Shown here in pieces: positions 9,669 through 54,639 of a DNA stretch of 57,421 nt (its first letter is position 1; each line of letters begins with the position of its first letter). This stretch comes from Candidatus Komeilibacteria bacterium CG_4_10_14_0_2_um_filter_37_10 (GTDB lineage: Bacteria; Patescibacteriota; Patescibacteriia; UBA1558): positions 1-57,421 of the forward strand of contig PFPO01000073.1 in the NCBI GenBank assembly GCA_002793075.1, in the 5' to 3' direction. The notes below the pieces were generated by a model, which ran no database searches, had not been told where the DNA came from, and saw only the letters and a list, made by a program, of their open reading frames with translations. The position numbers and the translations under genes are program-made.

Positions 9669-9670
9669 AA

Positions 9671-9700
9671 AAGCAGTGCTAATTATTAGCGCTGCTTTTT
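9671..9700. terminator. bidirectional hairpin between convergent murB and the orphan gene
   Basis: AAGCAGTGC (9671-9679) pairs with GCGCTGCTT (9689-9697): 9 bp including one G.U. Flanked by GAAAA and TTTTT. The 3' arm overlaps the last codons of the minus-strand orphan. Confidence 0.5.
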
Positions 9701-9952
9701 AAACCATTCATTGATTTGGGCATCTTTACCGTGTTGACAATAGATAGTAAAGCGTAGACTTTTATTTTTTTGTGCACTAGCTTCTAGGATGCGTAAATTC
9801 TTACGGCTAATACGCCAAGCTAATATTCTTTTCTCGGCTACCAGCAGATTATCGCATTGGGCGTCACTAGCTGAGCAGTCGGCAATAAGTAAATTAGCTA
9901 TCGCGGCATTAGTGTAATCATCAATCGGTTGTATGTACCACTGAGTAGTCAT
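9686..9952 (-). CDS. hypothetical protein (88 aa), orphan
   Basis: Only minus-strand gene within about 35 kb of plus-strand genes. AAAGGAGG sits 4 nt upstream of the ATG (complement of 9957-9964). No recognisable domain. Confidence 0.6.
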   Translation of the reverse strand: MTTQWYIQPIDDYTNAAIANLLIADCSASDAQCDNLLVAEKRILAWRISRKNLRILEASAQKNKSLRFTIYCQHGKDAQINEWFKKQR

Positions 9953-9992
9953 CGGACCTCCTTTTCTATCTTTGTACTACTATCTCTAATTA

Positions 9993-10021
9993 TTGTCAAT
10001 AATTATATTATCTGTTATATT
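9993..10021 (+). promoter_or_regulatory. candidate sigma70-type promoter for secA
   Basis: TTGTCA (9993-9998), 17-nt spacer, TATATT (10016-10021). The opposite strand reads TTGACA at 9994-9999, so the two -35 boxes overlap back to back. Confidence 0.35.
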
Positions 10022-10053
10022 AAGTCCAGTTTACTATTAATTTCTGCAAATAA

Positions 10054-16068: not shown

Positions 16069-17178
16069 ATGCAAAATGAATCTAATCTAAAATTTGAACA
16101 GAAAGAAAAAACTAATCCAGAAATAGAAATTGGAAATCCTCATGACATTGAAGGTCTTCTTTTATTTTCAATATTGCAAAATAAAATAGATATCAGTACC
16201 TGTGACACCAAGGAAGGTAAGGAAATACTAGCCGAATATCAAGTTGAAGATTTGCGTAAGTTTAGAATTCAATATCAAGAATTGGTAGAATTGACTGATA
16301 GTAATAAAGAATTAATAGATTGGTTATCTTTCTCATTTAACAAAAATCAAGATATTAAAGATTGTGTTCTTGAGCAAATAAAAATGCATAAATCTCCTTA
16401 TTTGCATATTAAACTTAATTATCTTATGTTGAAATTTCATAATCTAATAGCTGAATTTCAGCAAACTATTACCGTGAACGAAAAGACAAGTGATTATATT
16501 AACAATGATATTGATCGAAGGCAGAACGATTTATCGGAATTAAAAAATAAAATTAATGAAGCTATAAGTTTTTTTCTGCCAAAGAATTTTGGTAATATTA
16601 AGGAATATGTATATTTGCCTCACAATCCGTTAATGAAATCACAATCTGGTTTCGGAATGCACTTAGGTGAAACATATTATATTATGTCAGATCATAATAA
16701 CCGAGTTAATGAAGTTCATGAATTTCTCCATTCTATTATTAATCCAATAACGGAGAAAATAAAACTAACAGAGGTAGAAAAACGGAGTATATTAGAATTT
16801 TCTACTGAAAAAACCAAAGAACATTATGAATTTGCTGCCAGTATTTTAAATGAAACTTTAATTAGGTCTTATCGAACGGGATTTAATGTCGAAAATCAAC
16901 CTACTTTTGAGTCTTTTAAAAAAATATTGTTATCAACGCCGCGTAATATTATTATTGAGATCTTAGCGCGTGAGCATGGATCTCCTATTACCGATAATAT
17001 AGACGAACTATTAAATGATGAGAGTATTACGCGTCAATATTATGATAAATATGTCAGAGATAAATTTAAAGATAAAGTTTGGGAATTCTACAAAAGTTAT
17101 CAAGCAGAAATAAATCAAAATAATACTCAGTCTTTTGAAGATTATTTCTTACAAAATTATAAAAGTATATTTGAATAA
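16069..17178 (+). CDS. hypothetical cytoplasmic protein with a single HExxH motif
   Basis: 369 aa with no signal peptide and one HEFLH motif (VNEVHEFLHSIINP). Two 60-nt lines hand-counted within the gene are more AT-rich than lines counted elsewhere. No family recognised. Confidence 0.5.
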   Translation: MQNESNLKFEQKEKTNPEIEIGNPHDIEGLLLFSILQNKIDISTCDTKEGKEILAEYQVEDLRKFRIQYQELVELTDSNKELIDWLSFSFNKNQDIKDCVLEQIKMHKSPYLHIKLNYLMLKFHNLIAEFQQTITVNEKTSDYINNDIDRRQNDLSELKNKINEAISFFLPKNFGNIKEYVYLPHNPLMKSQSGFGMHLGETYYIMSDHNNRVNEVHEFLHSIINPITEKIKLTEVEKRSILEFSTEKTKEHYEFAASILNETLIRSYRTGFNVENQPTFESFKKILLSTPRNIIIEILAREHGSPITDNIDELLNDESITRQYYDKYVRDKFKDKVWEFYKSYQAEINQNNTQSFEDYFLQNYKSIFE

Positions 17179-33472: not shown

Positions 33473-34711
33473 ATGTTAGATATCAATTTAATTCGGCAAA
33501 ACATTCAAAATATTCAGAATAATTTAGCTCGACGTGATAGCTCTCGAGATTTTCATTTAGTTGATATTTGCAGCTTAGATGATCAGCGTCGATCATTAAT
33601 TCAGCAGGTTGATGATTTTAAAAAACAACAAAATATTTTAGCTAAAGGCGGTAAGCCAACAGCTGAACAGGTAACCGAGGGAAAAGAATTACGTGATCAA
33701 GTTACACGAATAGCAGTGACATTAAAGGATACAGAACAAAAATTAGATTTGCTGATGAGTGAATTGCCCAATCTTATTGCTGATGATGTGGTAGCGGGTG
33801 GTAAAGAAAATAATATCATTGTTAAAACTAACTTAAAATTAACCAAATTTTCTTTTACACCCAAAGATCATGTAGCTTTAGCCACAGAATTAGGTCTTAT
33901 TGATTATGCCCGAGCGGTGAAAATAGCTGGTAGTGGATTTTGGGCTTATGTTGGTCAGGGTGCAGTATTAGAATGGGCATTATTAAATTATTTTATTGAT
34001 TTTCACCGACAAAATAATTATTGTTTCGTAATTCCACCTTTTCTATTGACGGAAAAATCCGCTTATACTTCCGGTCATTTACCTAAATTCAGAGATGATT
34101 TATTTTGGACTGAAGACAAGCTATGTCTCAATGCAACTAGCGAGATGATGCTGGGAAATTTTCACCGTGATGAGATTTTAGATGAACAAAAATTACCACT
34201 AAAATATTTTGCCTATTCTCCTTGTTTTCGTCGTGAAGCCGGTAGTTACCGAGCAGAGGAGAGAGGAATGATTCGCGGTCATCAGTTTAATAAAATTGAA
34301 ATGTTTCAGTTGACAAAGCCAGAAGATTCTTGGTCAGCCTTTGATGAATTAGTTACTAATGCAGAAAAATTATTAATTGGTTTAGGATTGCATTTTAATA
34401 CTGTTAAATTAGCCGCTGGTGATTGTAGCTCAGCCATGGCAAAAACTTATGATTTAGAAGTTTATCTACCAAGTATGCAGGGTTATAAAGAAGTTAGTAG
34501 TATATCTAATGCCCTGGACTATCAAGCTCGCCGTGGACATATTCGATTTAAACGTCATGGTAAGAGTGAGTATGTTCACACCTTAAATGCATCTGGTTTA
34601 GCTACCAGTCGCTTACTACCGGCGATTTTGGAACAATACCAGCAAGCTAATGGTTCAGTCATAGTTCCCGAGGTATTACAAAAGTATTGTGGCTTTAGTA
34701 TCATTGAATAA
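33473..34711 (+). CDS. serS: serine--tRNA ligase
   Basis: N-terminal coiled coil MLDINLIRQN.... Class II motifs CFRREAGSYRAEERGMIRGHQFNKIEMF and HTLNASGLATSR. Confidence 0.95.
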   Translation: MLDINLIRQNIQNIQNNLARRDSSRDFHLVDICSLDDQRRSLIQQVDDFKKQQNILAKGGKPTAEQVTEGKELRDQVTRIAVTLKDTEQKLDLLMSELPNLIADDVVAGGKENNIIVKTNLKLTKFSFTPKDHVALATELGLIDYARAVKIAGSGFWAYVGQGAVLEWALLNYFIDFHRQNNYCFVIPPFLLTEKSAYTSGHLPKFRDDLFWTEDKLCLNATSEMMLGNFHRDEILDEQKLPLKYFAYSPCFRREAGSYRAEERGMIRGHQFNKIEMFQLTKPEDSWSAFDELVTNAEKLLIGLGLHFNTVKLAAGDCSSAMAKTYDLEVYLPSMQGYKEVSSISNALDYQARRGHIRFKRHGKSEYVHTLNASGLATSRLLPAILEQYQQANGSVIVPEVLQKYCGFSIIE

Positions 34712-34716
34712 CAATC

Positions 34717-35511
34717 ATGCGTCGTAAAATATCGATAGGATTTGCTTGGTTAAAACAATCGAGGATTAATTGTCAGCAGTATAAGTATTACTTAATACTG
34801 CTTTTAATGATATTAATTTATTTTGTATTTTATAGTAATTTATGGAACATTAGATATTTAAAGATTACTGATAGTTCAATTACTGATACCATACCTATTG
34901 AAAATACAATATGGTATAAATTACAGGGTCATTACTATTTATTGGTTAGTAAGAGTAATTATTGGTTTATCCAAACTAGTTTACTTAATCAACAATTGCT
35001 GGAGCAATATCCTTACCTCAATATAGTAATTGAAAAAAAGTTTCCGCGGACTATGATAGTAAATATTTCACCAAAAAATTCTAAGATAATTTGGCAGAAG
35101 GGTGACATTTATTACTTAGTTGATAACGAGGGTCAACTAATACATGAGTTACGTACCAATACTATCAAAAGGGACAACTTTGTCATTATTGAAGATAGAA
35201 TTAATAATTCTGTGCAATTGGGTGCTAGATTACTCAAAATTGAAGATTTGAACGGCATTATGAGTGTCGTAGCAGAATTTAAAGAAATGAATTTTACCAA
35301 TCTGCAATTCAATCGAGTTATTTACGACGACATTAGTTTAAGTACTATTAAAATTCTAACTAATAATAATATTGAAATACATTTAAGTTACCGAAAAAAC
35401 ATAACTGATCAGCTAAATAAGTTAAAATTAGCGATAGCACAGAATAAGCTGGATTTTACTACCATTCACTATATTAACCTAAAAATCGATCAGCAAGTTA
35501 TCTATCAATAA
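34717..35511 (+). CDS. FtsQ/DivIB-like cell-division protein (single TM plus POTRA-like region)
   Basis: Short cytoplasmic N-terminus and one TM helix (YYLILLLMILIYFVFY). The following NIRYLKITDSS... beta-rich domain has an FtsQ-like architecture. No strong sequence motif. Confidence 0.45.
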   Translation: MRRKISIGFAWLKQSRINCQQYKYYLILLLMILIYFVFYSNLWNIRYLKITDSSITDTIPIENTIWYKLQGHYYLLVSKSNYWFIQTSLLNQQLLEQYPYLNIVIEKKFPRTMIVNISPKNSKIIWQKGDIYYLVDNEGQLIHELRTNTIKRDNFVIIEDRINNSVQLGARLLKIEDLNGIMSVVAEFKEMNFTNLQFNRVIYDDISLSTIKILTNNNIEIHLSYRKNITDQLNKLKLAIAQNKLDFTTIHYINLKIDQQVIYQ

Positions 35512-35515
35512 GATA

Positions 35516-35547
35516 TGGCGTCGTATAAGATATATTGTGCGACGCCA
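35516..35547. terminator. stem-loop after the FtsQ-like gene
   Basis: TGGCGTCG (35516-35523) pairs perfectly with CGACGCCA (35540-35547), leaving a 16-nt loop. No adjacent T-tract. Confidence 0.4.
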
Positions 35548-35565
35548 CAGTAATTACTAAATAAA

Positions 35566-35597
35566 CAAAAAAGGATTGGTTACTATCCTCTTTTTAT
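35566..35597. terminator. bidirectional A-tract/hairpin/T-tract terminator at the convergent junction
   Basis: AAAAA-AGGAT (35567-35576), loop tggttact, then ATCCT-c-TTTTT (35585-35595). On the minus strand the hairpin is followed by T6, about 40 nt after the M23 peptidase stop. Confidence 0.45.
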
Positions 35598-35628
35598 TGT
35601 AATTCAATCACGCAATGATTTACCGATA

Positions 35629-36840
35629 TTAAGGCAAATAATCAAGTGGGTTAACTGGTATTCCATTACTTCTTACTTCCAGATGTAAGTGTGCACCAGT
35701 TGTTAGATTGCCAGCACCAGCAGTACCCGGCATACCACCGGAATAACCAATAATTTCTCCTTGCACAATAAAAGTGTCCTCGGCTACAATCATTCTGTTT
35801 AAATGTCCATAAACTGAAGAGATGCCATCACTATGTACTAGCATAATATAATTATAATTTCCACTATTACCAGTATTTTTAACTTTAGCTACATAGCCGG
35901 ACTTAATCGCCCGCACAGCACTCCCCTGAGACATAGCTATATCTATCGCTGGATGCTCAAAAACATGTCGATAGGGATAATCAGGATCATGAAAATAAGC
36001 AGTAACTAAGCGAGAGGTACTAGGCCAAATAAAGCCCTTTTCTGAGGCAAGAAACTGCTTACTGTTTGATTCTAACAATTTTTTGCGAGCTTTTATTTCT
36101 AAGTTGTATATTTCACTGTTGATTTGTTGCTGCTCTTTCTTTAATTGATTTAACAAAATAGTATATTTACTCTCTTCACCCTTAGTCTGCTTTAATATGC
36201 TATTTTTAATAGTAATATCACTATTTAATTTTTCTTCGTTAGAGCTAAGCTGATTCTGTAAACCAATTAGCTCATCATGTTTTTGTGTTAATAAATTATT
36301 TTGTCTGGTTAATTCCACTTTTTGACTATCCAAGTCATCAACTTTTTGTTTTAAACTATTATTAATCTTATTTATTTGATTAACATGATTAAAAAATGCA
36401 CCCAGAGAGTCATTTGTCAATAAGGCCGTTAAATTATTTTGATAATAGGAGCGTCTGTTTATTAAACGAAGTAAATCAGCAATTATTTGTTGATGATCCT
36501 CTATTATTTTTTCCGCTGCGGCTATTTCTTCCTGAAGCTGTTGAGTCTGTAAATTAGTCTCCTCTATTTCTAGACTTACAGTTTTAATTTCGAGATTCAC
36601 TTTATCGATTGTTTGATCCAGATTAGTTATTTGACCGGCAAGAGTATTAATTTGTTGGCGTGTCTTGCTTAATGATTTTTCATAGAGCTCTTTCTTACGT
36701 TTCAACTCTTCAATTTGTTTCTGTTTTGCGATAATTTCATCATTAATACTATCGGCAGCTAGTAGCTGATTAGTTAAAACTGACGTTAAAAATATAATCA
36801 ATATTAAATATTTTATATACTTATTTGTTTTCATATTCAT
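35629..36840 (-). CDS. M23 family metalloendopeptidase with a long N-terminal coiled coil (EnvC-like architecture, catalytic residues intact)
   Basis: Signal/anchor MKTNKYIKYLILIIFLTSVL and about 230 aa of heptad-rich coiled coil. The C-terminal LytM domain has HPAID (HxxxD) and HLHLE (HxH). Confidence 0.85.
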   Translation of the reverse strand: MNMKTNKYIKYLILIIFLTSVLTNQLLAADSINDEIIAKQKQIEELKRKKELYEKSLSKTRQQINTLAGQITNLDQTIDKVNLEIKTVSLEIEETNLQTQQLQEEIAAAEKIIEDHQQIIADLLRLINRRSYYQNNLTALLTNDSLGAFFNHVNQINKINNSLKQKVDDLDSQKVELTRQNNLLTQKHDELIGLQNQLSSNEEKLNSDITIKNSILKQTKGEESKYTILLNQLKKEQQQINSEIYNLEIKARKKLLESNSKQFLASEKGFIWPSTSRLVTAYFHDPDYPYRHVFEHPAIDIAMSQGSAVRAIKSGYVAKVKNTGNSGNYNYIMLVHSDGISSVYGHLNRMIVAEDTFIVQGEIIGYSGGMPGTAGAGNLTTGAHLHLEVRSNGIPVNPLDYLP

Positions 36841-38324: not shown

Positions 38325-39074
38325 CTAATTTTTTGCCCAATAGTCATATTTAATAAATAAATAAGAAAATTTAATTAGCGCTGAATAAATTCTTTGATAC
38401 CTGCGTGGCTGTCGTACTAAACGGTAAAACCACTCTAGACCACAGAAACGAATTAAATATGGCGCGCGTAATTTAGGATTAGCCAAAAAATCGAACGAAC
38501 CGCCAACACCAATTGCAACTTTGACCGATGATAATTTATCCAAATAATTAGCAATGAACTTTTGCGCTTGGGGAGCATTGTAACCAACTAATAACAAGTC
38601 AGGTTGCAGCTGATTTATTCGTCCTATGATTTCATTAAGCTCAAGAATATTCATTTGTTCAATATTGGTAAAACCATGATCGCAGCCCACTATGTTAGCT
38701 TGGGAATTAATTGCCAGTATTTTTCTCTTAGCTTCATAAGCAATACCCTCACGAGCGCCGAGCAAATAAACTCGATAGTTATTAATGCGCGAGTCTTTGA
38801 TTAAATAACTAATTAAATCAATACCAGTGATACGACAAATTTTTGCACCCTTGAGCCGCGCTGCTAATACAACACCCGTCCCATCAGCGGTATTATAAGT
38901 ACAATTATTTAATATTTGTTTAAAAATAGAATCTTGCCAGGCAGTAACAAGAAATTCCGGATTAACTGTGGCAATTTGATGTTGTTTGGTGCTTACTAGA
39001 AGTTCAAAAAAATTATTCATCAATTGATTAAATTTTAAATCATCTATTCTAACACCTAGTATTTTAATACTCAT
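38325..39074 (-). CDS. WecB/TagA/CpsF family glycosyltransferase (N-acetylmannosaminyltransferase-like)
   Basis: ILGVRIDD...ATVNPEF...ADGTGVVLAARL...VYLLGA...GVGGSFDF...RAP...GLEWFYRLVRQPRR is the family pattern. ATG at 39074 preferred, since the tracked start at 39116 is a TTG. Confidence 0.85.
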   Translation of the reverse strand: MSIKILGVRIDDLKFNQLMNNFFELLVSTKQHQIATVNPEFLVTAWQDSIFKQILNNCTYNTADGTGVVLAARLKGAKICRITGIDLISYLIKDSRINNYRVYLLGAREGIAYEAKRKILAINSQANIVGCDHGFTNIEQMNILELNEIIGRINQLQPDLLLVGYNAPQAQKFIANYLDKLSSVKVAIGVGGSFDFLANPKLRAPYLIRFCGLEWFYRLVRQPRRYQRIYSALIKFSYLFIKYDYWAKN

Positions 39075-39138
39075 GATTAATAAATTAGTAATGAATGTTT
39101 CTACATTTTGCCACAATCATCAGCTGAACAGCCAAAAT

Positions 39139-39194
39139 ATTTCGAAATTAAAGGCTCACTGTTTAGATTTTAGCAGTTTTTCTTAGATTTAGCA
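39139..39194. promoter_or_regulatory. candidate operator elements upstream of the radical SAM operon
   Basis: A perfect 10-bp palindrome ATTTCGAAAT (39139-39148). A direct repeat TTAGATTTTAGCA (39163-39175) / TTAGATTTAGCA (39183-39194) has 20-nt phasing, and its second copy overlaps the -35 box. Confidence 0.3.
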
Positions 39195-39211
39195 ATATTT
39201 TGTGCTATAAT
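39183..39211 (+). promoter_or_regulatory. candidate promoter giving a leaderless radical SAM mRNA
   Basis: TTAGAT (39183-39188), 17-nt spacer, TATAAT (39206-39211) preceded by TGtGc, then 6 nt to the ATG at 39218. Confidence 0.45.
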
Positions 39212-39217
39212 AGAATA

Positions 39218-39712
39218 ATGATTGAAGCCATTCTTAAGCAAATTAAAAATGGTGGTTATCAATGCACTTTGTGTCATCACAATTGTTTTTTAAAAAATGG
39301 ACAAACTGGTCTTTGTCGTACCAGAAAAATGATTAATAATCAACTAATGGTTTTGAATTATAATCAAATAGTTGCTTTACAAGTTGATCCGATAGAAAAA
39401 AAGCCATTGTATCATTTTTTACCTGGTTCCCAGACTCTATCTTTAGCTTGTTGGGGTTGTAATTTTAAGTGTTTGAACTGCCAAAATTTCAATTTGTCGC
39501 AGGAAGAAGAGTCAGTCACCGATCAAGCTATTGATGTTAATGAAGTAATTAACAGGGCAAAACAACTAGGGTGTTTATCAATTGCTTATACTTATACCGA
39601 ACCAACAATTTTTCTCGAAACTGCTTTACCAATTATGCAAGCGGCTAAGAAAAATGGTTTATTTAACATTTGGGTGAGCAATGGTTTTTTTCTGAACAAT
39701 GTTGGCAATTAA
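39218..39712 (+). CDS. radical SAM enzyme, N-terminal fragment (frame 0)
   Basis: Contains the 4Fe-4S/SAM motif CNFKCLNC. Terminates 7 codons after the T7 run (GFFLNNVGN*). Confidence 0.7.
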   Translation: MIEAILKQIKNGGYQCTLCHHNCFLKNGQTGLCRTRKMINNQLMVLNYNQIVALQVDPIEKKPLYHFLPGSQTLSLACWGCNFKCLNCQNFNLSQEEESVTDQAIDVNEVINRAKQLGCLSIAYTYTEPTIFLETALPIMQAAKKNGLFNIWVSNGFFLNNVGN

Positions 39713-40224
39713 TTAAACCATATTTGGATGCTATCAATATTGATCTAAAGTTTGGTACTGATTATCAATATCAAAAAATTTGCCACGGTCGCTATCAACC
39801 AGTATGGAACAATATTGTCCAAGTAAATAACTCACCGGTTCATTCAGAAATTACCAATTTAATTATCCCGGGAATTAACGATGATCAAAAATCTTTTTTG
39901 ACGTTGGTTAAAAAAATTTATCAGCTTAATAAATTTATCCCCGTACATTTGAGTAAATATTTTCCCGTGGAACCAAATCTCCTATCAGTAGTAACTTCTG
40001 ATAAGCAATTAATAAATTTTTATCAGCAAGCCAGAAAGATTGGATTGCCGTATATCTACCTTGGTAATGTAAACAATGAAAAATATAACTCCACTTACTG
40101 TCCTCATTGTTTAACGACTATTATCACGCGCATTGGTTATCGCACTATTAATTATCTAATCAATAATCGTTGTCCTCGTTGTCTTTATTCAATTAACATT
40201 TATTGTAATGAGCAAACTATTTAA
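39670..40224 (+). CDS. radical SAM enzyme, C-terminal fragment (-1 frame)
   Basis: The tracked start is a TTG and the 184-aa translation contains no other Met, so independent initiation is doubtful. The sequence continues the family alignment (SEQCWQLIKPYLDAINIDLK). Confidence 0.6.
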   Translation: MGEQWFFSEQCWQLIKPYLDAINIDLKFGTDYQYQKICHGRYQPVWNNIVQVNNSPVHSEITNLIIPGINDDQKSFLTLVKKIYQLNKFIPVHLSKYFPVEPNLLSVVTSDKQLINFYQQARKIGLPYIYLGNVNNEKYNSTYCPHCLTTIITRIGYRTINYLINNRCPRCLYSINIYCNEQTI

Positions 40225-41617
40225 AAGTATTATTATTAGCATTATCTTGTTACTCACTACTAACATCTTATTAGTGCACGCACAAATAGAGTATGAATCA
40301 AATCCCCTTTTTAATGCTAATTTGATTATTTCTGATCAAGATTTTACCAACTATCAGTCAATGACTTTGGAAGAAATACAAAGCTTTTTAGAAACTAAGG
40401 GTACTTTGGGTAGTTATATTGATCCCATGGCAAATCTGCGAGCCTCTTTTATTATTTTCACTGCTGCTAACGATTATCAAATAAATCCGCAAGTATTGTT
40501 AACTTTAATTCAGAAGGAGCAAAGTTTAGTAGATGATCCGTCCCCTAGCAAAAGACAATTGGACTGGGCCGCCGGCTATAGTTGTTACAACGGATCGTGT
40601 GATGAAAATTATCGCGGTTTTACTATGCAAATTAGAGGTGCAGCAAGAAAATTTATGGTTGGTTATTGGCCTGATTTGGTAAGTTCTAATTGTACTTTTA
40701 CTAATTGGTGTGTCAATAAACCCAAAAGGACGCAAGATAATATTTTGGTTACCCCCGGAAGCAAAGCAACTTGTGCTCTGTATACTTACAATCCCTATCG
40801 CGGTAATACCATAGTCAATGGCTTAAAAATTGGCGCTAATTATAATTTCTGGAAAATCTGGAATCGTTGGTTTGGCATCAGTAAATATCCGGATGGTACT
40901 TTGCTCAAAGCTAAGGGACAGGCTAAGGTTTTTGTCATTAAAGATGGCCAAAAAAGATGGATAACTTCCTTCGCCGCCCTGACTACGAGATTTAATCCCA
41001 ATAATATTATTGAAGTAACTGAGGAAATGCTTAGTAGCTATCCTGAAGGACCTGCTATCCGTTATCCGCTTTTTACGCTACTAAAAACACCGAACGGTTC
41101 AATTTATTTAATTGATCGTGATAGTAAACGAATAATTGTCTCTTGGGAAGTTTTTCGCCTTATTGGTTTCAATCCTGAGGAAATTGAAGAGGTTGATTTT
41201 ACTGATGTTAACGATATTCCTGACGGTATTCCTATTACCCTCACAGACTCGTATCCTACAGGCGCAGTTCTCAAGGTGCAAGGTAATAATGATCTATATT
41301 ATGTAGAAAATGGTTATCGTTACCCAATTATTGATGAGATTATTCGTCTTAATCAATATTCTTATCTAAAACCAATAACGGTTACTACGCTAGAGATTGA
41401 AAAGTACCAACTGCGGGAGCAAATAAAATTTAGTGATGGGACGTTATTAAAGGCTAGCAATGATAATAAAGTCTATGTTATCTCCCAGGGAACAAGACGA
41501 TTGATACCAACGGCTGATATCTTTGTGAATTATGGATATAGTTGGTCCAATATAATCGAAGTCAGTCAACAAGTATTAGAATTACATCCCTTAGGTGAAT
41601 CATTAAGTAATTTGTAA
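40208..41617 (+). CDS. secreted protein: unknown N-terminal domain plus four tandem repeats of about 55-60 aa
   Basis: Signal peptide MSKLFKSIIISIILLLTTNILLVHA/Q. Cys-containing N domain (INPQVLLTLIQKEQSL...GYSCYNGSCDENYRG). The C-terminal repeats each follow the pattern G(T/A)(L/V)LK...(V/L)Y(V/L)I..G.(K/R)R.I. Confidence 0.7.
   Translation: MSKLFKSIIISIILLLTTNILLVHAQIEYESNPLFNANLIISDQDFTNYQSMTLEEIQSFLETKGTLGSYIDPMANLRASFIIFTAANDYQINPQVLLTLIQKEQSLVDDPSPSKRQLDWAAGYSCYNGSCDENYRGFTMQIRGAARKFMVGYWPDLVSSNCTFTNWCVNKPKRTQDNILVTPGSKATCALYTYNPYRGNTIVNGLKIGANYNFWKIWNRWFGISKYPDGTLLKAKGQAKVFVIKDGQKRWITSFAALTTRFNPNNIIEVTEEMLSSYPEGPAIRYPLFTLLKTPNGSIYLIDRDSKRIIVSWEVFRLIGFNPEEIEEVDFTDVNDIPDGIPITLTDSYPTGAVLKVQGNNDLYYVENGYRYPIIDEIIRLNQYSYLKPITVTTLEIEKYQLREQIKFSDGTLLKASNDNKVYVISQGTRRLIPTADIFVNYGYSWSNIIEVSQQVLELHPLGESLSNL
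40886..41614 (+). repeat. four tandem protein-level repeats inside the secreted protein
   Basis: Units start near aa 227 (YPDGTLLKAKGQAKVFVIKDGQKRWI), 287 (PLFTLLKTPNGSIYLIDRDSKRII), 349 (YPTGAVLKVQGNNDLYYVENGYRYPI) and 408 (FSDGTLLKASNDNKVYVISQGTRRLI). Confidence 0.7.
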
Positions 41618-41620
41618 TTT

Positions 41621-42397
41621 ATGTCCTTAGTTTATTCGTCAATATTGCCTCATCCACCACTACTAGTACCCTTCTTTTTAACGAAAAACAAATTGTTGTT
41701 AAAAAATCTTTTGGTTAGTATTAATCAAGTAAAGGAATCAATTTATCATAAAAATCTGGATACCATCATTATTATTGCTCCTCACACTCAACTAGTCAGT
41801 GGTACCATTGAAATAAATATTGCTAATCAGTTTACATTAGACTTCAGCTCCTTTGGTGATTTGTCTACTTATAAAAATTATCCATCAGATTTGGACTTAA
41901 TTGGTTTACTTCATGATAGCGATGTTAAAAATCTATCTTTCCAATATCAAGATCGGGTTAACTATGATTACGCGATACCCCTAGCTCTTTTAGACAACAA
42001 TTTAGCGGTAAAGTACGTTTTAATTGGTGTCAATAACTGTTCTGACGAACAAATAACAAGTTTTGCTACAAGTTTAACGAATATTTTGCATGTAGAAAAG
42101 AAAAGAGTTGGAATGATTATTTCCGGTGATTTATCACATCAAATTGAAAAAAGTAATAGCAAACTTAAACTATTGGCTGCGGATAATTTAATTTTGGATT
42201 GGTTAAAGAATAAAGAAAGTTTTATTAATAGTAATCAATTATTAACAAGTCATGAATTTAGCCAAGCTGGTATTTGTCTCTATCAACCACTATTACTCGG
42301 TTTAACGATTCTGAGTAATATTAATTATCAATGTAATATCTTACGAACGGATAGTTTAGCCGGAATAAACTATTTAATTGCGGAATTCATTATTTAG
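41621..42397 (+). CDS. class III extradiol dioxygenase subunit B-like / Memo-like protein (candidate AmmeMemoRadiSam protein B)
   Basis: The N-terminus SILPHPPLLVP, then IIIAPHT and ISGDLSH, resemble the LigB/Memo superfamily. The usual DHG segment reads DYDYAIPL, so metal ligands may be altered. Confidence 0.5.
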   Translation: MSLVYSSILPHPPLLVPFFLTKNKLLLKNLLVSINQVKESIYHKNLDTIIIIAPHTQLVSGTIEINIANQFTLDFSSFGDLSTYKNYPSDLDLIGLLHDSDVKNLSFQYQDRVNYDYAIPLALLDNNLAVKYVLIGVNNCSDEQITSFATSLTNILHVEKKRVGMIISGDLSHQIEKSNSKLKLLAADNLILDWLKNKESFINSNQLLTSHEFSQAGICLYQPLLLGLTILSNINYQCNILRTDSLAGINYLIAEFII

Positions 42398-42400
42398 GAT

Positions 42401-44089
42401 ATGTACTATCATATCATTCCTATAGCGAAGATAAATCCTCAAAAATCAACATTTATTTATCACAGTGCACAGGAGCTTAGCATTGGTGATATTGTGAATA
42501 TTAATTTAGGGGCGACAAAATATTTAGGATTAATATATCGCCAGGCTTATCAACAAGAAATAAAATTTAAAATTAAAGATATCACCACCCCGATCAAGGG
42601 TTTATTTTTAGACCAGCAACAAATTAATTTAATGGAAAATGTTGCGGAAAAACTGCATTTGTCTTTAGCGACGACTTTATTTATTCTCATGCCAAAACTG
42701 ACAATCAAAAAATTATTGATCAGTACCCTATACAAAACAAAGAAGCTTGATTTAATCAAAAGAAATTATCGCCAGTTTTATATAAACTATCATTTTTATG
42801 AAGACAAATTAAAATATTATCAAAAAATAATTGGTAATTGTTCAGGACAGAGTTTAATTATTGTGCCTGATATTATATCGCAGGATAATATTTACCAGTA
42901 TCTAAAAAAGGGTAATGCCAAATTAGAGATTATTAAATTATCCGCACAAACAAAATCCAGCCAACAAACAGAGTATTGGCGGGATATTCATAATGGCCAA
43001 ATTAAAGTAGTTATTGGTACCAGAAAATCCGTTTTTTTTCCTTTTAATAACTTGCAAAATATTATTTTCGACCAAGCAGCAAATAATAATCATCGACAGT
43101 GGGATCAAAACCCTCGTTTTGATAGTAGTATTTTAGTTGATAGTTTAGCAGCCACCCATGGATCAAATTTATATTTTGTGGATTGTTTTTTTAATTTGTC
43201 TTGCTATCAACAAATATTGCAACAAAAAAAATATTACCAATTGCAAAGCGCTAACCAACGGGGTAATATTGAAGTTCATAGTGGCGATGAGCTCAATAAA
43301 ATTTCTGATTTATTACAACGGTTAAACAAAAAGGATAAAATAATAGTTCTTTTTAATCAGTTAAATAAACGGCAACTATTTTGCACAAAATGCCAAATCT
43401 CTCTCGATAACGAAACTTGTCATTATTGTAATTCAACTAGTTTACAAAGGGTTAATAGTATATATGAATTATGGCAACAAGCAGTTAAAGACAAATATGA
43501 CGGTTTAGATGCCTACTTATTTTCCGCCAATAATAAATCAATTAATACCAATAAAAGTATCATCTTTGCTACTGTTGCTATTTTGCCATATTTACCCCAG
43601 ATGCAATGGACTCGTTTGATTATTGCTGATTTTACCAGTTGGCAAAATCATTTAGATTTAGATCGACAGTTTTATCTACGTTACATACTAAATTATTTAC
43701 TGGCTTTTAAAAAACCCTTAGATATATTTACTAGCGAGAAGGGCAATCCCCTCTTACTCGTTAATGATCAACAGAAATTTATTAAACAACAATTACTGCT
43801 AGCAAAAAATAATAATTTATTTCCTTATCACAATATAATTAAAATAATTATTAAAGCAAAAACCAAAATTACTTTGCTAAAAAAGACAGATTTACTAATT
43901 AAATTTTTGTCTTCATACATCCTAGTTGATGAGCTGTACAAAACTACTATTTCTCATGATCACAATCAACTGTATCATTCACTTATCTTGACCGATTACC
44001 ATAATCATGATATTAATAAATTTATCCAATGCAAAATTAGCGGTGTTTATTGGGAATTAAATCCTTATCAAGTAATTAGTAATAAATAA
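42401..44089 (+). CDS. priA: PriA-like primosomal protein N' homolog with degenerate helicase motifs
   Basis: N-terminal 3'-DNA-binding-like segment (IGDIVNINLGATKYLGLIY). LIIVPDI and VVIGTRKSVFFPFNNL align to PriA LVPEI and [10 protein letters not shown]. One CxxC-x8-CxxC. Sits directly upstream of def-fmt. No GxGKT, and DEEH reads DQAA. Confidence 0.6.
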   Translation: MYYHIIPIAKINPQKSTFIYHSAQELSIGDIVNINLGATKYLGLIYRQAYQQEIKFKIKDITTPIKGLFLDQQQINLMENVAEKLHLSLATTLFILMPKLTIKKLLISTLYKTKKLDLIKRNYRQFYINYHFYEDKLKYYQKIIGNCSGQSLIIVPDIISQDNIYQYLKKGNAKLEIIKLSAQTKSSQQTEYWRDIHNGQIKVVIGTRKSVFFPFNNLQNIIFDQAANNNHRQWDQNPRFDSSILVDSLAATHGSNLYFVDCFFNLSCYQQILQQKKYYQLQSANQRGNIEVHSGDELNKISDLLQRLNKKDKIIVLFNQLNKRQLFCTKCQISLDNETCHYCNSTSLQRVNSIYELWQQAVKDKYDGLDAYLFSANNKSINTNKSIIFATVAILPYLPQMQWTRLIIADFTSWQNHLDLDRQFYLRYILNYLLAFKKPLDIFTSEKGNPLLLVNDQQKFIKQQLLLAKNNNLFPYHNIIKIIIKAKTKITLLKKTDLLIKFLSSYILVDELYKTTISHDHNQLYHSLILTDYHNHDINKFIQCKISGVYWELNPYQVISNK

Positions 44090-44092
44090 TTT

Positions 44093-44560
44093 ATGATTCT
44101 AAATATTTTAACTTACCCTAATAATTTTTTACGCGGTAAAAATCGGATATTACGTGATATTTTATCGACCGAGACCCAAACTTTTATTGAAAATTTAAAA
44201 GAAACTATGTTGGTTAAAGATGGTGTTGGTTTAGCAGCTCGGCAAGTTGGCAATGAAGACCAAATTTTTGTGGTACAAATCGATAAAAATATTGAAGTTT
44301 TTATTAATGCCAAAATAGTTTACTCCTCTTTTATTAAAAGTGAATTAGAAGAGGGATGTTTATCAGTTCCCGATGTTTATGGTTTAGTTAGTCGACCGAA
44401 AACAATACTAGTTAAATATTACAATCAAATAGGTCAATTAAAGATCAAAAGATTCAGCAATTTGATTGCTCATGTAGTCCAACACGAATATGATCATAAT
44501 CAAGGTGTCCTATTTATCGATAAAGTAAAGGAATTAACACATGGCATTATCCCCCAATAA
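44093..44560 (+). CDS. def: peptide deformylase
   Basis: All three motifs are present: GVGLAARQVG, EGCLSVP and QHEYDHNQG. Confidence 0.93.
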   Translation: MILNILTYPNNFLRGKNRILRDILSTETQTFIENLKETMLVKDGVGLAARQVGNEDQIFVVQIDKNIEVFINAKIVYSSFIKSELEEGCLSVPDVYGLVSRPKTILVKYYNQIGQLKIKRFSNLIAHVVQHEYDHNQGVLFIDKVKELTHGIIPQ

Positions 44561-45506
44561 AACAAAAATCATTTTTTTTTCCTCGGATCACCATACCTGG
44601 CCAGTGCTGAGATATTTAGCACAAAATGTTAATTATGATGTTTTACTGATTACTAAGAATGAAAAACCTATTGGTCGTAATCAGGTGATGTCAGCCAACA
44701 ATTTAGCCCTGGAAGCTGATAAAAATAATATTTCAACAGTTGCCGTTTCTTCAATAGATCAGGAATTAAATAATAAAATTGCTGATTTCCAGCCAGCGAT
44801 AATATTTGTTTACTCCTTTGGTTTGATTTTCCCAACTTGGTTTATTACTACTTACGGAGACAAAACTATTAACATTCATCCGTCAGATTTACCGAAATAT
44901 CGTGGCAGTTCTCCGCTCCAGGCAGCTCTGCTTAAGGGAGACAAGAAAACAGCAGTTTCGTTTATCAAATTAGCTAATGATGTAGACGCTGGTGATGTAT
45001 TATGTAAGTATCCGCTCATTATTCAATCAACGGATCAATACCTGACTCTAAGTCAATCAGTCAATCAGTCAATAATACAACAAATTGATAACTTTATTAA
45101 TCAATATCTAAATCACAAGTTAACAGCTTCTACTCAAGGACTGGTAGGACTGTCCAAAACCAGAAAAATCAATAAACAAAATGGTCTTATTGATTGGCAA
45201 TTAGCTGCTGTTGCTATTTTTAATAAGTGGCGAGCTTATTATTATTGGCCGGAAATCTATACTTACTGGCAAAATAGTAAGTTGATTTTAAAAGAAATTG
45301 CACTTGCTACAGATCAAAATCAAATTGCTCACATCGGGCAAATTTATCAGTCAGCTAATAAACAAATTTGTGTTCAATGCGGTGTCGGTTCGATAATTAT
45401 ATTACAAATACAGTTAGCCGGAAAAAAACAAATGCCCATCGAGTTATTTATTAATGGTCAGCGAACATTTATTGATTCCTCTTTAGCTAATCCTTTTTCT
45501 CAGTAA
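44541..45506 (+). CDS. fmt: methionyl-tRNA formyltransferase
   Basis: INIHPSDLPKYRGSSPLQAALLKGD formyltransferase core with a C-terminal tRNA-binding domain. def-fmt pair. Confidence 0.9.
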   Translation: MALSPNKTKIIFFSSDHHTWPVLRYLAQNVNYDVLLITKNEKPIGRNQVMSANNLALEADKNNISTVAVSSIDQELNNKIADFQPAIIFVYSFGLIFPTWFITTYGDKTINIHPSDLPKYRGSSPLQAALLKGDKKTAVSFIKLANDVDAGDVLCKYPLIIQSTDQYLTLSQSVNQSIIQQIDNFINQYLNHKLTASTQGLVGLSKTRKINKQNGLIDWQLAAVAIFNKWRAYYYWPEIYTYWQNSKLILKEIALATDQNQIAHIGQIYQSANKQICVQCGVGSIIILQIQLAGKKQMPIELFINGQRTFIDSSLANPFSQ

Positions 45507-46980
45507 CCCAAAAACCCAATTTAAAGCGGCCACCGAGCATCATCCGCGTTTGCGCGTCAGTAGCTGGTAGGGAACCAAATATGATCATCGTGATCGGAAA
45601 AATTAGCCACTGAAAAAACATTATTAAATATTTAGCCCAGTGATATTTTTGCGGTTTTGGTGGCAATATTTTCGTGGCTAAAAAACCAGTTAAAAATAAT
45701 CCCACCATTGAAATAGACATTAAAAATTTTAGGATATAGGGTGCTTGCTGAGCAATATACAACTCTTGAATATTTTTACTAGCTACCCATAGGGGTAATT
45801 TACCCATAATAAAAATGAGTAAGGGTGCCGTGGCCCACGAATATACACCCTCTGTTTGATTCCATAAATACCGTATTTTTTTTACTAACGGTATTTTTTT
45901 GTTACGCGCAAAATTCCAAGCCATATAAGGAAAGTGTTCAACGCCCCAAGCCCAACGACGCATTTGTTTATATTGATTGATCAGGCTTCGCCAAAATTTA
46001 CCCATATAAACAGTATTCATGGAAACTGGTATGTACATGGGCTTGACCTGATAATCACCATTATAATAGATAAAACACTGCAAAAAGATACGTGAATCCT
46101 CGGTAACAATATCATTTTGCCAAAAACCAACCTTAACTAAAGTATCAAAACTCATACTATGCGAAGAAAAAGTAAATAATCTTTCTGGTCTGGCCAAATC
46201 AGTTAATAACCAAAAAGTGGTTGAGTTGGCCACCACTCGTGTAATAAAATTCGATTCCCACATGTTATTATGATAAAAAGCTAGAGGCTGATAACTATAA
46301 TGCGTGGGCCGATCAACGGTAGCATATTGCATAGTTAAATAGGCAAAATATTGCGGATGGACATGGGTATCAATATCAAAACAAGAAACAATAACTCGCT
46401 CATGGGGCCAGCCTTGTTGATCAACGTATAGTTTGGCTTGTTGACCAGCATAATGCATGTTTGATCCTTTACCCGGCAATTCGCCAGCAACATTCTGGGG
46501 ATGAACAGTAATGATTAATTTCTTAAAATATTGTCCATACCGTTCATTGATAATGGCACTAATGTTCAAAAAATTTTCTTTATCTCTCTCCTCACCACCC
46601 AAAATAATAGTCATTTTCTTTAAAGAATATTTTACTGCTATTAAATTATCAAATGTTTTGGCAATAACTTCTAACGGTTCCTTATAAGTTGGTAAAAAAA
46701 TTAGATGCTCATATTGCTGATAATTAATATGGCGATAATCTAATTCTTTTTGCCAATCAATTTTGATTTCTGATTGATATTTCCGCCAAGAAATAATCAA
46801 ATATATTAACGAGTAGCTAATCCGCAAAAACCAATAAAGATCAAAAAGAATAATAAAATAGATGGCGATAATAGGTTGCCAAAAAGATAAGATAACAGCG
46901 CCAATTAGGGTGGTCCAAACTAAAAAACCTGGTAGTATTTCTAATAGTCGATAGTAGTAATAATTTTTATTAATTATCAT
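45487..46980 (-). CDS. membrane-integrated processive GT2 beta-glycan synthase-like protein
   Basis: TM helices at both ends. Cytoplasmic GT2 core with FDIDTH (DxD), VTEDSRIF (TED) and QMRRWAWG (QxxRW), the D,D,D,QxxRW set of cellulose/chitin/NodC-type synthases. Confidence 0.75.
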   Translation of the reverse strand: MIINKNYYYYRLLEILPGFLVWTTLIGAVILSFWQPIIAIYFIILFDLYWFLRISYSLIYLIISWRKYQSEIKIDWQKELDYRHINYQQYEHLIFLPTYKEPLEVIAKTFDNLIAVKYSLKKMTIILGGEERDKENFLNISAIINERYGQYFKKLIITVHPQNVAGELPGKGSNMHYAGQQAKLYVDQQGWPHERVIVSCFDIDTHVHPQYFAYLTMQYATVDRPTHYSYQPLAFYHNNMWESNFITRVVANSTTFWLLTDLARPERLFTFSSHSMSFDTLVKVGFWQNDIVTEDSRIFLQCFIYYNGDYQVKPMYIPVSMNTVYMGKFWRSLINQYKQMRRWAWGVEHFPYMAWNFARNKKIPLVKKIRYLWNQTEGVYSWATAPLLIFIMGKLPLWVASKNIQELYIAQQAPYILKFLMSISMVGLFLTGFLATKILPPKPQKYHWAKYLIMFFQWLIFPITMIIFGSLPATDAQTRMMLGGRFKLGFWVTEKKD

Positions 46981-52875: not shown

Positions 52876-53192
52876 CTGAATAACAAGTAAAATAGTATAC
52901 CAGTAACGAGAAATGGTACTAAAAGTAACGGCCAAGAGAAATTAAAATAAATTAATGCTAGCGTGGCTAAAAGTAGTAAATAAATAATACTACTTTTTTT
53001 CTTCGTAATTTTTGGCTGCTCCGAATAAAAGTAATAAATAACTAACACCATGGTAACTACTAGGTGGTAGTGTATATTATAATAATTACTAATAACGCCG
53101 GGCTTAATATTATCCATGATTAAAAATATTAAGAGAAAATATACGGCTATTAATACTAGATGATGTTTGATTTGTAACCAGGTATTATTCAT
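52869..53192 (-). CDS. small polytopic membrane protein
   Basis: 107 aa with 3-4 hydrophobic helices. Its start overlaps the upstream gene stop by 8 nt. Confidence 0.5.
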   Translation of the reverse strand: MNNTWLQIKHHLVLIAVYFLLIFLIMDNIKPGVISNYYNIHYHLVVTMVLVIYYFYSEQPKITKKKSSIIYLLLLATLALIYFNFSWPLLLVPFLVTGILFYLLFSY

Positions 53193-54639
53193 GATAATTA
53201 TACTTTAAATAACGATAAATCCGATCAAACCAAGTTCCCGAATCCTGATAGTCTAAACTAATACTCTTAATTATTAGAGGGTTTTCTTGGCTACTACCAG
53301 GACAAGCAATAATAAATCTTAATTTATTTTGTTCAATGGCGGCACGATCTAAAGAAAAATTTACTGATCCTGAAGCAATGTTATTGATTATAATTGGCGG
53401 TATATAAGCGGCAATAAAATAAGAAAAGTTGGAGTTATTATTAATAATTTCTAAATTATTGATATTTGGCTCAAAAAACATTGACCAATCAAAAGCAAAA
53501 AGACCATTACCGCTGATCATCATATCACTTTTGGGAATTATTAATTTACTCAGTCCCGATAATTTTTTGAGCGAATACTTTCTTTGTAACTCCTTAATTG
53601 TCAAGCTAGTATTATTAACCGTGACTGTTTGTAATCCGGCAGGGTGACTGGTGGAAAATTCTAGGGTTGTACTGTTGGTAATTAATTTATTTTCCTTAAT
53701 TGGTATAATTGGGTTACCATCACGATATTCAGTGGAGTTAGCCAAATAAAGAATTTTATTAAAAGTTAAGTAGCGATGTTTGGTTTCAATACTGGTAGTA
53801 AAAATATCATAACCAGCTAAAAACTCTACTTGGTAAACGCCCTCTGTTAATTGATCATTGTGAATATTAATATATCTCTTGGGTATCGGTGCCACGCCTG
53901 TGGTTGAGTAGCCATCATCATTAACGCGAATGGTGTCAACTAGCTCACCGAATTCATTTTTAATATTAATAACAATATTATCTTCATTGTTAGCTCGATT
54001 ATAATCCAGAATTTCTAAACGATAATCAAGACCTTTTTTGATGTAAGTATAAAAACTATAATCACCACGTAGGACATAATCAAATCTTCTTTGCTCCGAC
54101 CAATCACTGTAATTATTAATCTGAAATTTATGATGCAGCGACATATTGTAGGAAGCAATATTATTAGTTAATTGCTCTGACTGATTTTCTAGAAATGACT
54201 CAATGGAACTAAATTCGCTTTGCTTTTGCCATAATGTATAACCGCGCTGTGTTATTTGGGACCAATTTAGTTGAGCAAATGAATCATTATAAACTGTCTG
54301 TAATTGATATGACCAGTCATTACTACTATTCTGTTTTAAACCAATCTTTAAGGTGTCACAGCTACGACTATCAAAATTTAAACCAATGCTTACTATTGAT
54401 GCTGGATAAGGTAAACGAGCGGTAAAATAAACTGGCTCCTGGGTAATCTGCCAATTAGTATCTACTATTTCTATCCGATTAGCCGGAAATAAATCACCAA
54501 TGATTGCTGATTGTTGATAAGGTTGACGCCAAGCCGTCAAATTGTTTATTAAACCACTATCATAAGCAACAAAAAAAATAGGAACTAAAATAGCCATTAA
54601 TAAAAATATTGAATCAACTAATCTATTTGTTTTTGACAT
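53185..54639 (-). CDS. hypothetical N-terminally anchored extracytoplasmic protein (484 aa)
   Basis: Single N-terminal TM helix (SIFLLMAILVPIFFVAY), then a beta-rich, N/S/T-rich body. Its start overlaps the GT-C gene by 17 nt. Confidence 0.55.
   Translation of the reverse strand: MSKTNRLVDSIFLLMAILVPIFFVAYDSGLINNLTAWRQPYQQSAIIGDLFPANRIEIVDTNWQITQEPVYFTARLPYPASIVSIGLNFDSRSCDTLKIGLKQNSSNDWSYQLQTVYNDSFAQLNWSQITQRGYTLWQKQSEFSSIESFLENQSEQLTNNIASYNMSLHHKFQINNYSDWSEQRRFDYVLRGDYSFYTYIKKGLDYRLEILDYNRANNEDNIVINIKNEFGELVDTIRVNDDGYSTTGVAPIPKRYINIHNDQLTEGVYQVEFLAGYDIFTTSIETKHRYLTFNKILYLANSTEYRDGNPIIPIKENKLITNSTTLEFSTSHPAGLQTVTVNNTSLTIKELQRKYSLKKLSGLSKLIIPKSDMMISGNGLFAFDWSMFFEPNINNLEIINNNSNFSYFIAAYIPPIIINNIASGSVNFSLDRAAIEQNKLRFIIACPGSSQENPLIIKSISLDYQDSGTWFDRIYRYLKYNYHE

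Follow-up and report, generated by a model that had tools for sequence, protein, structure and literature searches.

Can a protein that occupies the place of PriA in a bacterial genome, and is built like PriA, do the work of PriA without its motor? The question is raised by a gene at 42401..44089 (+ strand) of contig PFPO01000073.1 from Candidatus Komeilibacteria bacterium CG_4_10_14_0_2_um_filter_37_10, a member of the Patescibacteria or candidate phyla radiation (CPR); the whole 57,421-nucleotide stretch that was analysed is referred to below as the window. Its open reading frame (ORF) encodes 562 amino acids (aa) followed by a stop, and an original prediction, made from the letters of the DNA, had taken the product for a PriA homologue with a dead ATPase, retained as a scaffold for DNA binding or primosome loading. 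That reading is the best supported of those considered here, its DNA-binding and helicase-loading parts being suggested by sequence and by analogy with characterised PriAs. The gene is a true priA orthologue, as seen in the ORF, in its homology and in the predicted fold, and the protein has lost motifs I, II, III, V and VI while keeping the elements that contact DNA, namely motifs Ia and Ib, the aromatic-rich loop (ARL) and the pocket of the 3' DNA-binding domain (3'BD). It is probably an ATP-independent PriA pseudohelicase, a structure-specific sensor of forks and D-loops that would nucleate reloading of the replicative helicase.

The identity of the protein was established from profiles and from the fold. 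The Pfam model for the 3'BD of PriA (PriA_3primeBD, PF17764) was matched over aa 14-98 with an E value of 1.3e-7 and 31.8 bits (cut-off 22.7 bits), in agreement with the 3'BD-like N-terminal segment that had been noticed by eye, and was also matched by 78 of the 78 degenerate relatives scanned. NCBIfam priA models matched lobe 1 with E values of 1e-17 to 1e-14, far under their equivalog cut-offs; the best score was 63.7 bits against the 813 set for the PRK05580 models, and TIGR00595 gave 50.9 against 230.35. PDB chains of PriA likewise matched lobe 1 at E about 2e-8. Alignment by hhalign of a profile of the 78 degenerate relatives with a profile of 17 intact PriAs, including that of E. coli, ran end to end over 618 columns with a probability of 100 and an E value of 4e-146. 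An AlphaFold2 model of the window protein had a pLDDT of 92.5 and a pTM of 0.92, and its best nine matches in the PDB were all PriA, with 8fak_H first (TMq 0.79, E about 7e-27). PriA structures matched with TM 0.64-0.79, whereas other helicases (Mfd, RecQ, DEAD-box) reached at most 0.42, and the next family after PriA in the search with the first model was DbpA (TMq 0.36). A multiple sequence alignment (MSA) of degenerate members only gave a pLDDT of 92.0, a TM of 0.79 to 8fak_H and the same matches, so that the fold assignment is independent of the intact sequences in the MSA.

The low TIGR00595 score and weak RecG matches (E 0.04-0.06) might be taken to mean that the protein is some other superfamily 2 (SF2) member, a RecG, Mfd or DEAD-box relative misaligned by eye. 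Set against a 3'BD that is specific to PriA, a full-length profile alignment, nine best structural matches that are all PriA and the priA-def-fmt gene order, this is extremely unlikely, and RecG, Mfd and other SF2 identities were rejected on those RecG values and on structural TMq values of no more than 0.42.

The motifs that bind and hydrolyse ATP are gone, and the equivalences on which this statement depends agree among MAFFT alignments of 7 and of 148 sequences and hhalign. Motif I, at the Walker A position (aa 127-140; 42779..42820, + strand as are all parts of the gene), reads YINYHFYEDKLKYY in place of xxAGVTGSGKTEVY; E. coli AGVTGSGKTEVY is aligned within it to NYHFYEDKLKYY, and where GxxGxGK[TS] is required the window protein has YHFYEDKL. 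The model shows this region as a strand (aa 124-130), a two-residue turn and a helix (aa 133-145), with K136 still at the Walker-lysine column and neither the glycine-rich loop nor the Thr around it. Motif II (43061..43084) has become IIFDQAAN, with DQAA (aa 224-227, 43070-43081) replacing DEEH, and motif III (43172..43192) is YFVDCFF for ILGSATP, so that GSATP is answered by VDCFF. Further along, motif V (43559..43600) reads IIFATVAILPYLPQ for ILIGTQMLAKGHHF, E. coli LIGTQMLAKGHHF being aligned with IFATVAILPYLPQ and FATVAILPYL standing where GTQMxxKG is expected, while motif VI (43688..43714) is LNYLLAFKK for QVAGRAGR (YLLAF at the core) and has lost the arginine finger.

A pattern search for GK[ST], [AG]xxxxGK and DExH/D/Q found none anywhere in the 562 residues. 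The reports of no GxGKT, of a DEEH box reading DQAA (on which MAFFT and hhalign agree) and of unrecognisable lobe-2 signatures were all borne out, and no P-loop or DExH box overlooked through misalignment came to light in a protein whose similarity to PriA is plain. The only candidate for a hidden P-loop in the six frames of 42001-44500 was an off-frame GKCCGKT at about nt 42634-42654, which was set aside as a chance match because it lies in the wrong frame and inside the part that encodes the 3'BD. It might still be proposed that ATP or another nucleoside triphosphate is hydrolysed through a non-canonical site, since a lysine persists at the Walker-lysine column in both the window protein and the related P0001, and since, according to a review, another nucleotide site, weaker than the first, has been proposed for E. 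coli PriA (PMC5778457). Such an enzyme is very improbable, for the protein has neither the glycine-rich loop nor the Thr, neither acidic residue of motif II, no motif III and none of the motif VI arginines; the lysine itself is not conserved in the clade (motif I conservation 0.26), and in E. coli the K230R change abolishes activity by itself (PMC4504706).

The elements that contact DNA are retained. The 3'BD spans aa 1-98 (42401..42694; Pfam match and alignment), and in its pocket F18, Y20 and K59 align to E. coli F16, Y18 and K61, E. coli D17 being replaced by I19; Y20 is 98% conserved and K59 88% conserved in the degenerate set. Alignments likewise recover motif Ia as LIIVPDI (aa 152-158, 42854..42874) and motif Ib as VVIGTRKS (aa 203-210, 43007..43030). 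The ARL, or motif IIa, NHRQWDQNPRFD (43088..43123), is retained both in alignments and in the genome scan described below. No other stretch is as well conserved in the clade, with P238 at 100% and R239 at 83%, and the scan picked out from it, as the best conserved peptide, H[KRF]Q[WSF][DE][QNM][NKQ]PR[YF]. The C-terminal domain (CTD; aa 473-562, 43817..44086) is divergent, with LFPY for YPPF. It was delimited by hhalign, which reaches the last residues, and by the model, which has a pLDDT of 90-97 there and can be superposed on PriA structures over its full length; Pfam PF18074 found no match to it in the window protein and a match in 45 of 78 relatives.

Two further parts of the protein are reduced. 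At the place of the E. coli winged-helix (WH) domain there is a short linker (aa 99-123, 42695..42769), the WH domain being absent from the alignments; MAFFT and hhalign both leave a gap of ~100 residues against E. coli PriA, and the linker is the stretch of lowest pLDDT in the model (about 70). The second-best structural match, 6dcr, is a PriA from which the WH domain has been deleted. Short intact PriAs such as P0010 are also without it, and the WH domain is therefore not universal to the family. Of the cysteine-rich region (CRR) there remains, in the alignments, a single CxxC-x8-CxxC of 16 residues (C328, C331, C340 and C343, aa 328-343; 43382..43429), i.e. four of the eight cysteines that bind two Zn in E. 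coli PriA, and Pfam PF18319 found no match in the window protein. The single motif and its place had been correctly foretold. The claim that most of the cysteines were lost has to be amended, as half survive, and the lysine at the Walker-lysine column calls for a second small amendment. The four cysteines would suffice for one complete Zn site, and MAFFT and hhalign differ in which of the two sites they take it to be. The strings quoted in the original prediction (YINYHFYEDKLKYY, LIIVPDI, VVIGTRKS, DQAA and the CxxC-x8-CxxC) all lie where it had placed them.

Whether this pattern belongs to one odd protein or to a group can be judged from a column-by-column comparison of 125 degenerate with 17 intact sequences. 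Conservation in motif I was 0.26 in the degenerate against 0.82 in the intact set, and the other ATPase motifs followed suit: 0.49 against 0.87 for motif II, 0.39 against 0.91 for motif III, 0.42 against 0.77 for motif V and 0.18 against 0.69 for motif VI. The 3'BD pocket stood at 0.73 in degenerate and 0.76 in intact sequences, K61 at 0.88 and 0.94, motif Ia at 0.63 and 0.71, motif Ib at 0.71 and 0.73, the ARL at 0.62 and 0.71 and the YPPF of the CTD at 0.70 and 0.72. Conservation thus breaks down at the ATP motifs, whereas the DNA-contact and structural elements are nearly as well conserved as in intact PriAs. This is the pattern expected, as far as sequence can tell, of a protein that still recognises forks without burning ATP.

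The gene is a live one. The 562-aa sequence recurs unchanged on 11 contigs, drawn from at least 6 samples (ENA, JGI, Logan and NCBI), and so cannot be an assembly artefact. An orthologue, P0001 (563 aa, contig L002), is 43% identical and lies within a syntenic block of 15 genes. Between the two genes pN is 0.36 and pS 0.68, the synonymous sites being saturated, and dN/dS is about 0.28, similar to the value for fmt; window priA is under purifying selection and is no decaying pseudogene. A functionless ORF that merely has not yet been disrupted might be suspected from the lowest identity among the syntenic genes, from the loss of all catalytic motifs and from the frameshifted radical SAM gene nearby, which indicates that genes do decay at this locus. 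Intact ORFs of 562 and 563 aa at such divergence and under such constraint, hundreds of degenerate homologues that are full-length and share the same conserved non-ATPase motifs, and a fold predicted at very high confidence make a relic of this kind quite unlikely.

The distribution of the degenerate form was investigated in two surveys. In the first, 1.84 billion cluster representatives were searched exhaustively with HMMER, giving 2142 matches at E <=0.001, and a motif census was made of 147 full-length sequences drawn from the top 150 of these and from earlier matches. Walker A, DExH and motif VI were lacking together in 123 of the 147, and all three were present in 16. Intermediates were few, e.g. 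P0006, which has lost motifs I and VI and keeps DDEH; further intermediate states are found in P0025, P0042 and P0141. All eight CRR cysteines were kept in 131 of the 147, four in 8 and none in 5, and the halved CRR of the window protein and P0001 is accordingly a rarer and further step. In the second survey one genome per GTDB species was scanned with the ARL pattern, giving 35 loci in 35 different assemblies, of which those with informative names belong to the Moran-, Magasanik-, Kuenen- and Kerfeldbacteria and the Parcubacteria group, all Patescibacteria. The window's own genome is not among these loci, its copy in GCA_002790475.1 comprising the C-terminal 269 aa, without the search motif. 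Among the ORFs extracted from the scan the ATPase motifs were gone in 30 of 34 and intact in 4 of 34.

Relatives of window priA were thus found in metagenome-assembled genomes (MAGs) of Patescibacteria/CPR, and among the cluster-mates of a close homologue the nearest that has a name comes from Candidatus Komeilibacteria. One degenerate PriA from that group (P0162, MFW0837783.1, in the cluster of P0013) carries the name 'hypothetical protein' at NCBI. On the contig (L003/L004) that encodes the 24%-identical degenerate PriA P0002, a RuBisCO large-subunit homologue and an AMP/thymidine-phosphorylase-like gene stand side by side at 8596-11322, presumably the pairing for nucleotide salvage that is frequently described from CPR genomes. 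A neighbour-joining tree of 148 homologues, from which the ATPase and CRR columns had been removed, placed the intact sequences in two separate groups, and its largest wholly degenerate clade held 96 sequences. This tree, which has no support values and is built at ~20% identity, hints that the ATPase motifs may have been lost more than once.

Gene order shows which PriA the degenerate gene is. In the window it is preceded, after 3 nt, by a LigB/Memo-like gene (AmmeMemoRadiSam protein B-like; 41621..42397, +), a neighbour in conserved synteny, and followed after another 3 nt by def (peptide deformylase; 44093..44560, +), which overlaps by 20 nt with fmt (methionyl-tRNA formyltransferase; 44541..45506, +). 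Strong Pfam and NCBIfam matches confirmed both def and fmt, upstream of which the gene had been said to lie. About 25 of 37 Patescibacteria loci share the order Memo/LigB-priA-def-fmt. Intact PriAs of L016 and L020 occupy the same slot before def-fmt, and because they share it the degenerate genes are priA orthologues and not paralogues. Those two and the intact PriAs of L006 and L028, all from Patescibacteria MAGs, have an unusual Walker A (FGPxxSGKT) with DEEQ or DEEH and QxxGRxNR; in L006 and L028 the gene does not adjoin def-fmt.

These data also bear on whether the protein has been turned to another use, as a DNA-binding regulator, a partner of some other machine or a subsidiary paralogue beside an intact PriA elsewhere in the genome. 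The absence of a dnaB or loader gene from the visible 57 kb, the occurrence in some Patescibacteria of intact PriAs, away from def-fmt in L006 and L028, the fast evolution of the protein and its halved CRR would all be compatible with such a change. It is nevertheless unlikely, as the gene sits in the orthologous priA-def-fmt slot that intact PriAs hold in L016 and L020, as the elements retained are exactly those that contact the fork, and as the 35 ARL-pattern loci fall in 35 assemblies; no genome among these had two priA copies, by a scan for the ARL pattern that did not take in whole genomes. In the 57-kb window itself a phmmer search with five intact PriAs against the six-frame ORFs matched only the window priA ORF, Pfam scans of 30 other window ORFs returned housekeeping genes only, and neither dnaB nor a loader gene was found.

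How might a pseudohelicase of this kind work? Contacts with an abandoned fork or D-loop would be made by the 3'BD, by motifs Ia and Ib and the ARL in lobe 1, and by the CTD. Translocation and unwinding are most likely impossible because motifs I, II, III, V and VI, by which ATP is bound and hydrolysed, have been destroyed, and the protein is predicted to lack DNA-dependent ATPase and 3'-5' helicase activity. It would instead serve as a landing pad for reloading the replicative helicase, a role proposed because of the precedents of E. coli PriA K230R and D. radiodurans PriA. We infer from the sequence the loss of ATPase activity, the binding of forks and the recruitment of DnaB or its loader, and the reduction of the CRR would fit a lineage with no PriB to dock.

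Several observations weigh against this proposal. The CRR is halved, though in E. coli the CRR is required for primosome assembly because it is the docking site of PriB. Of the 15 syntenic genes priA is the least conserved (43% identity against 47-83%), and the window protein has changed at positions that are conserved in its clade, e.g. R468 to A, P474 to F and G354 to I; since it thus departs from its own degenerate clade, relaxed constraint is indicated, particularly in lobe 2. The AlphaFold2 models draw on the coevolution of residues in the family and are silent on activity. Finally, the portion of the genome inspected is 57 kb, and a second intact priA could lie elsewhere.

In the remainder of the window Pfam and NCBIfam scans identified mostly housekeeping genes, including the cluster mraY-murD-ftsW-murG-murC-murB, secA, alaS and rpoA, together with several aminoacyl-tRNA synthetases, glycosyltransferases and one tRNA-Gln. 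Overall G+C is ~33%, and at 29% the priA ORF is the most A+T-rich stretch. Scans for promoters and terminators over 39000-46000 gave counts no higher than those of shuffled sequence. At the left end an IS30-family transposase (83-1060, +; NCBIfam NF033563, E 4e-72) directly precedes a class-V aminotransferase and the mur/fts cluster. Two ORFs had no meaningful Pfam or NCBIfam match, one of 483 aa at 53185-54639 (-) and one of 369 aa at 16069-17178 (+). Cumulative GC skew climbs steadily to ~1.84 and then drops at about 34000-36000, at the passage from an extended series of + strand genes (83-35511) to mixed orientation; the turn could be a replication-related switch or an effect of gene strand.

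Upstream of the LigB/Memo-like gene lies a 469-aa protein (40208-41617, +) with an N-terminal hydrophobic segment and without a family match. Its counterpart in L002 (5226-6638) is 79% identical, and in L047 a gene of 471 aa (127-1542), like it in position and length, stands directly upstream of Memo/LigB-priA-def-fmt. The radical SAM enzyme of the AmmeMemoRadiSam system (TIGR04337) is frameshifted into two overlapping ORFs, 39200-39712 and 39670-40224 (both +), which cover positions 5-159 and 167-329 of the 349 in the model. The same split recurs in the independent assembly L040, and the relative L002 has no such gene. What the window carries is probably a decaying pseudogene beside a retained Memo/LigB-like gene.

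The Patescibacteria/CPR radiation makes up a large share of bacterial diversity, and the weight of the finding lies mainly in the clade-wide pattern, less in this single gene. Whether an ATP-independent, fork-sensing PriA is the normal state across much of the radiation, having probably arisen there more than once, is a proposition we regard as evenly balanced. In that case PriA carries its helicase motor as an accessory, and fork recognition and scaffolding, not unwinding, would be its indispensable core. The lineage of the window would then come near to a natural 'minimal PriA' composed of a 3'BD, a pair of dead RecA lobes in which nothing but motifs Ia and Ib and the ARL is left, a single Zn knuckle and a CTD, and restart in reduced genomes would be free of PriB, DnaT and motor alike, possibly proceeding by direct contact between PriA and DnaB. 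Natural minimal PriAs would help to define the true requirements of restart, and they raise the question of how DnaB is reloaded in organisms without PriB, DnaT and the PriA motor. There is also a practical consequence. Since degenerate PriAs score too low for the NCBIfam cut-offs, and the name 'hypothetical protein' has been given to at least one of them, surveys of CPR genomes may wrongly score priA as absent or as an active helicase.

Studies on PriA from other bacteria provide the standard against which the window protein can be set. In domain order (3'BD, lobe 1, lobe 2 with an inserted Zn module, CTD, the two lobes being RecA-like) and in fold it resembles the PriAs of E. coli (8FAK, 6DCR) and K. 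pneumoniae (4NL4), with TMq 0.71-0.79. In E. coli the 3'BD, ARL and CTD contact the fork (PMC10175261, PMC5175346); the ARL can be crosslinked to the junction of the fork, into which a cryo-EM complex shows it wedged (PMC5175346, PMC10175261), and the CRR is where PriB docks (PMC10175261). The E. coli protein has 3'-5' helicase activity, a WH domain and an eight-cysteine, two-Zn CRR, whereas the window protein is about 15% identical to it, fails at every ATPase motif and has a Zn remnant of 16 residues. Closer at hand are the short intact PriAs of Patescibacteria and other bacteria (e.g. P0010, P0034, L016 and L020; about 650 aa), which like the window protein have no WH domain and carry a loop of the HKQWDxNPRY type, but which keep GxxGxGKT or GPxxSGKT, DEEH/Q, GSATP, QxxGRxxR and all eight cysteines.

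Loss of the motor has precedents. The E. coli priA300 product (K230R) has no ATPase, helicase or translocase activity (PMC5778457), yet it differs little from the wild type in vivo and sustains restart in vitro (PMC5778457); judged by this protein, restart through PriA-PriB needs no ATPase activity (PMC5778457). The natural case is that of D. radiodurans, whose PriA was found by Lopper, Boone and Morrow in 2015 to have no ATPase or helicase activity (PMC4504706), to bind single-stranded DNA and forks with an affinity near that of the E. coli protein and to bind DnaB directly (PMC4504706), in a genome without priB or dnaT (PMC4504706). Helicase activity was described in a 2018 review as conserved 'except in Deinococcus' (PMC5778457), later literature not being covered here. 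Both D. radiodurans PriA and the window protein are PriA orthologues whose Walker A and B no longer match the consensus, and for both ATP-independent recognition of forks and reloading of the replisome without PriB or DnaT are implied, in the present case from sequence. The damage in Deinococcus-Thermus is subtle, GKT having become GRT beside a poor motif II (PMC4504706), whereas in the window protein motifs I, II, III, V and VI can no longer be recognised, and both the WH domain and half of the CRR are missing. Intact PriAs with the clade-specific HKQWDxNPRY loop exist inside the Patescibacteria, and the loss there is for that reason independent of the one in Deinococcus-Thermus. The PriA pseudohelicase is thus of a kind already described, and the form found in the Patescibacteria is more extreme and much more widespread.

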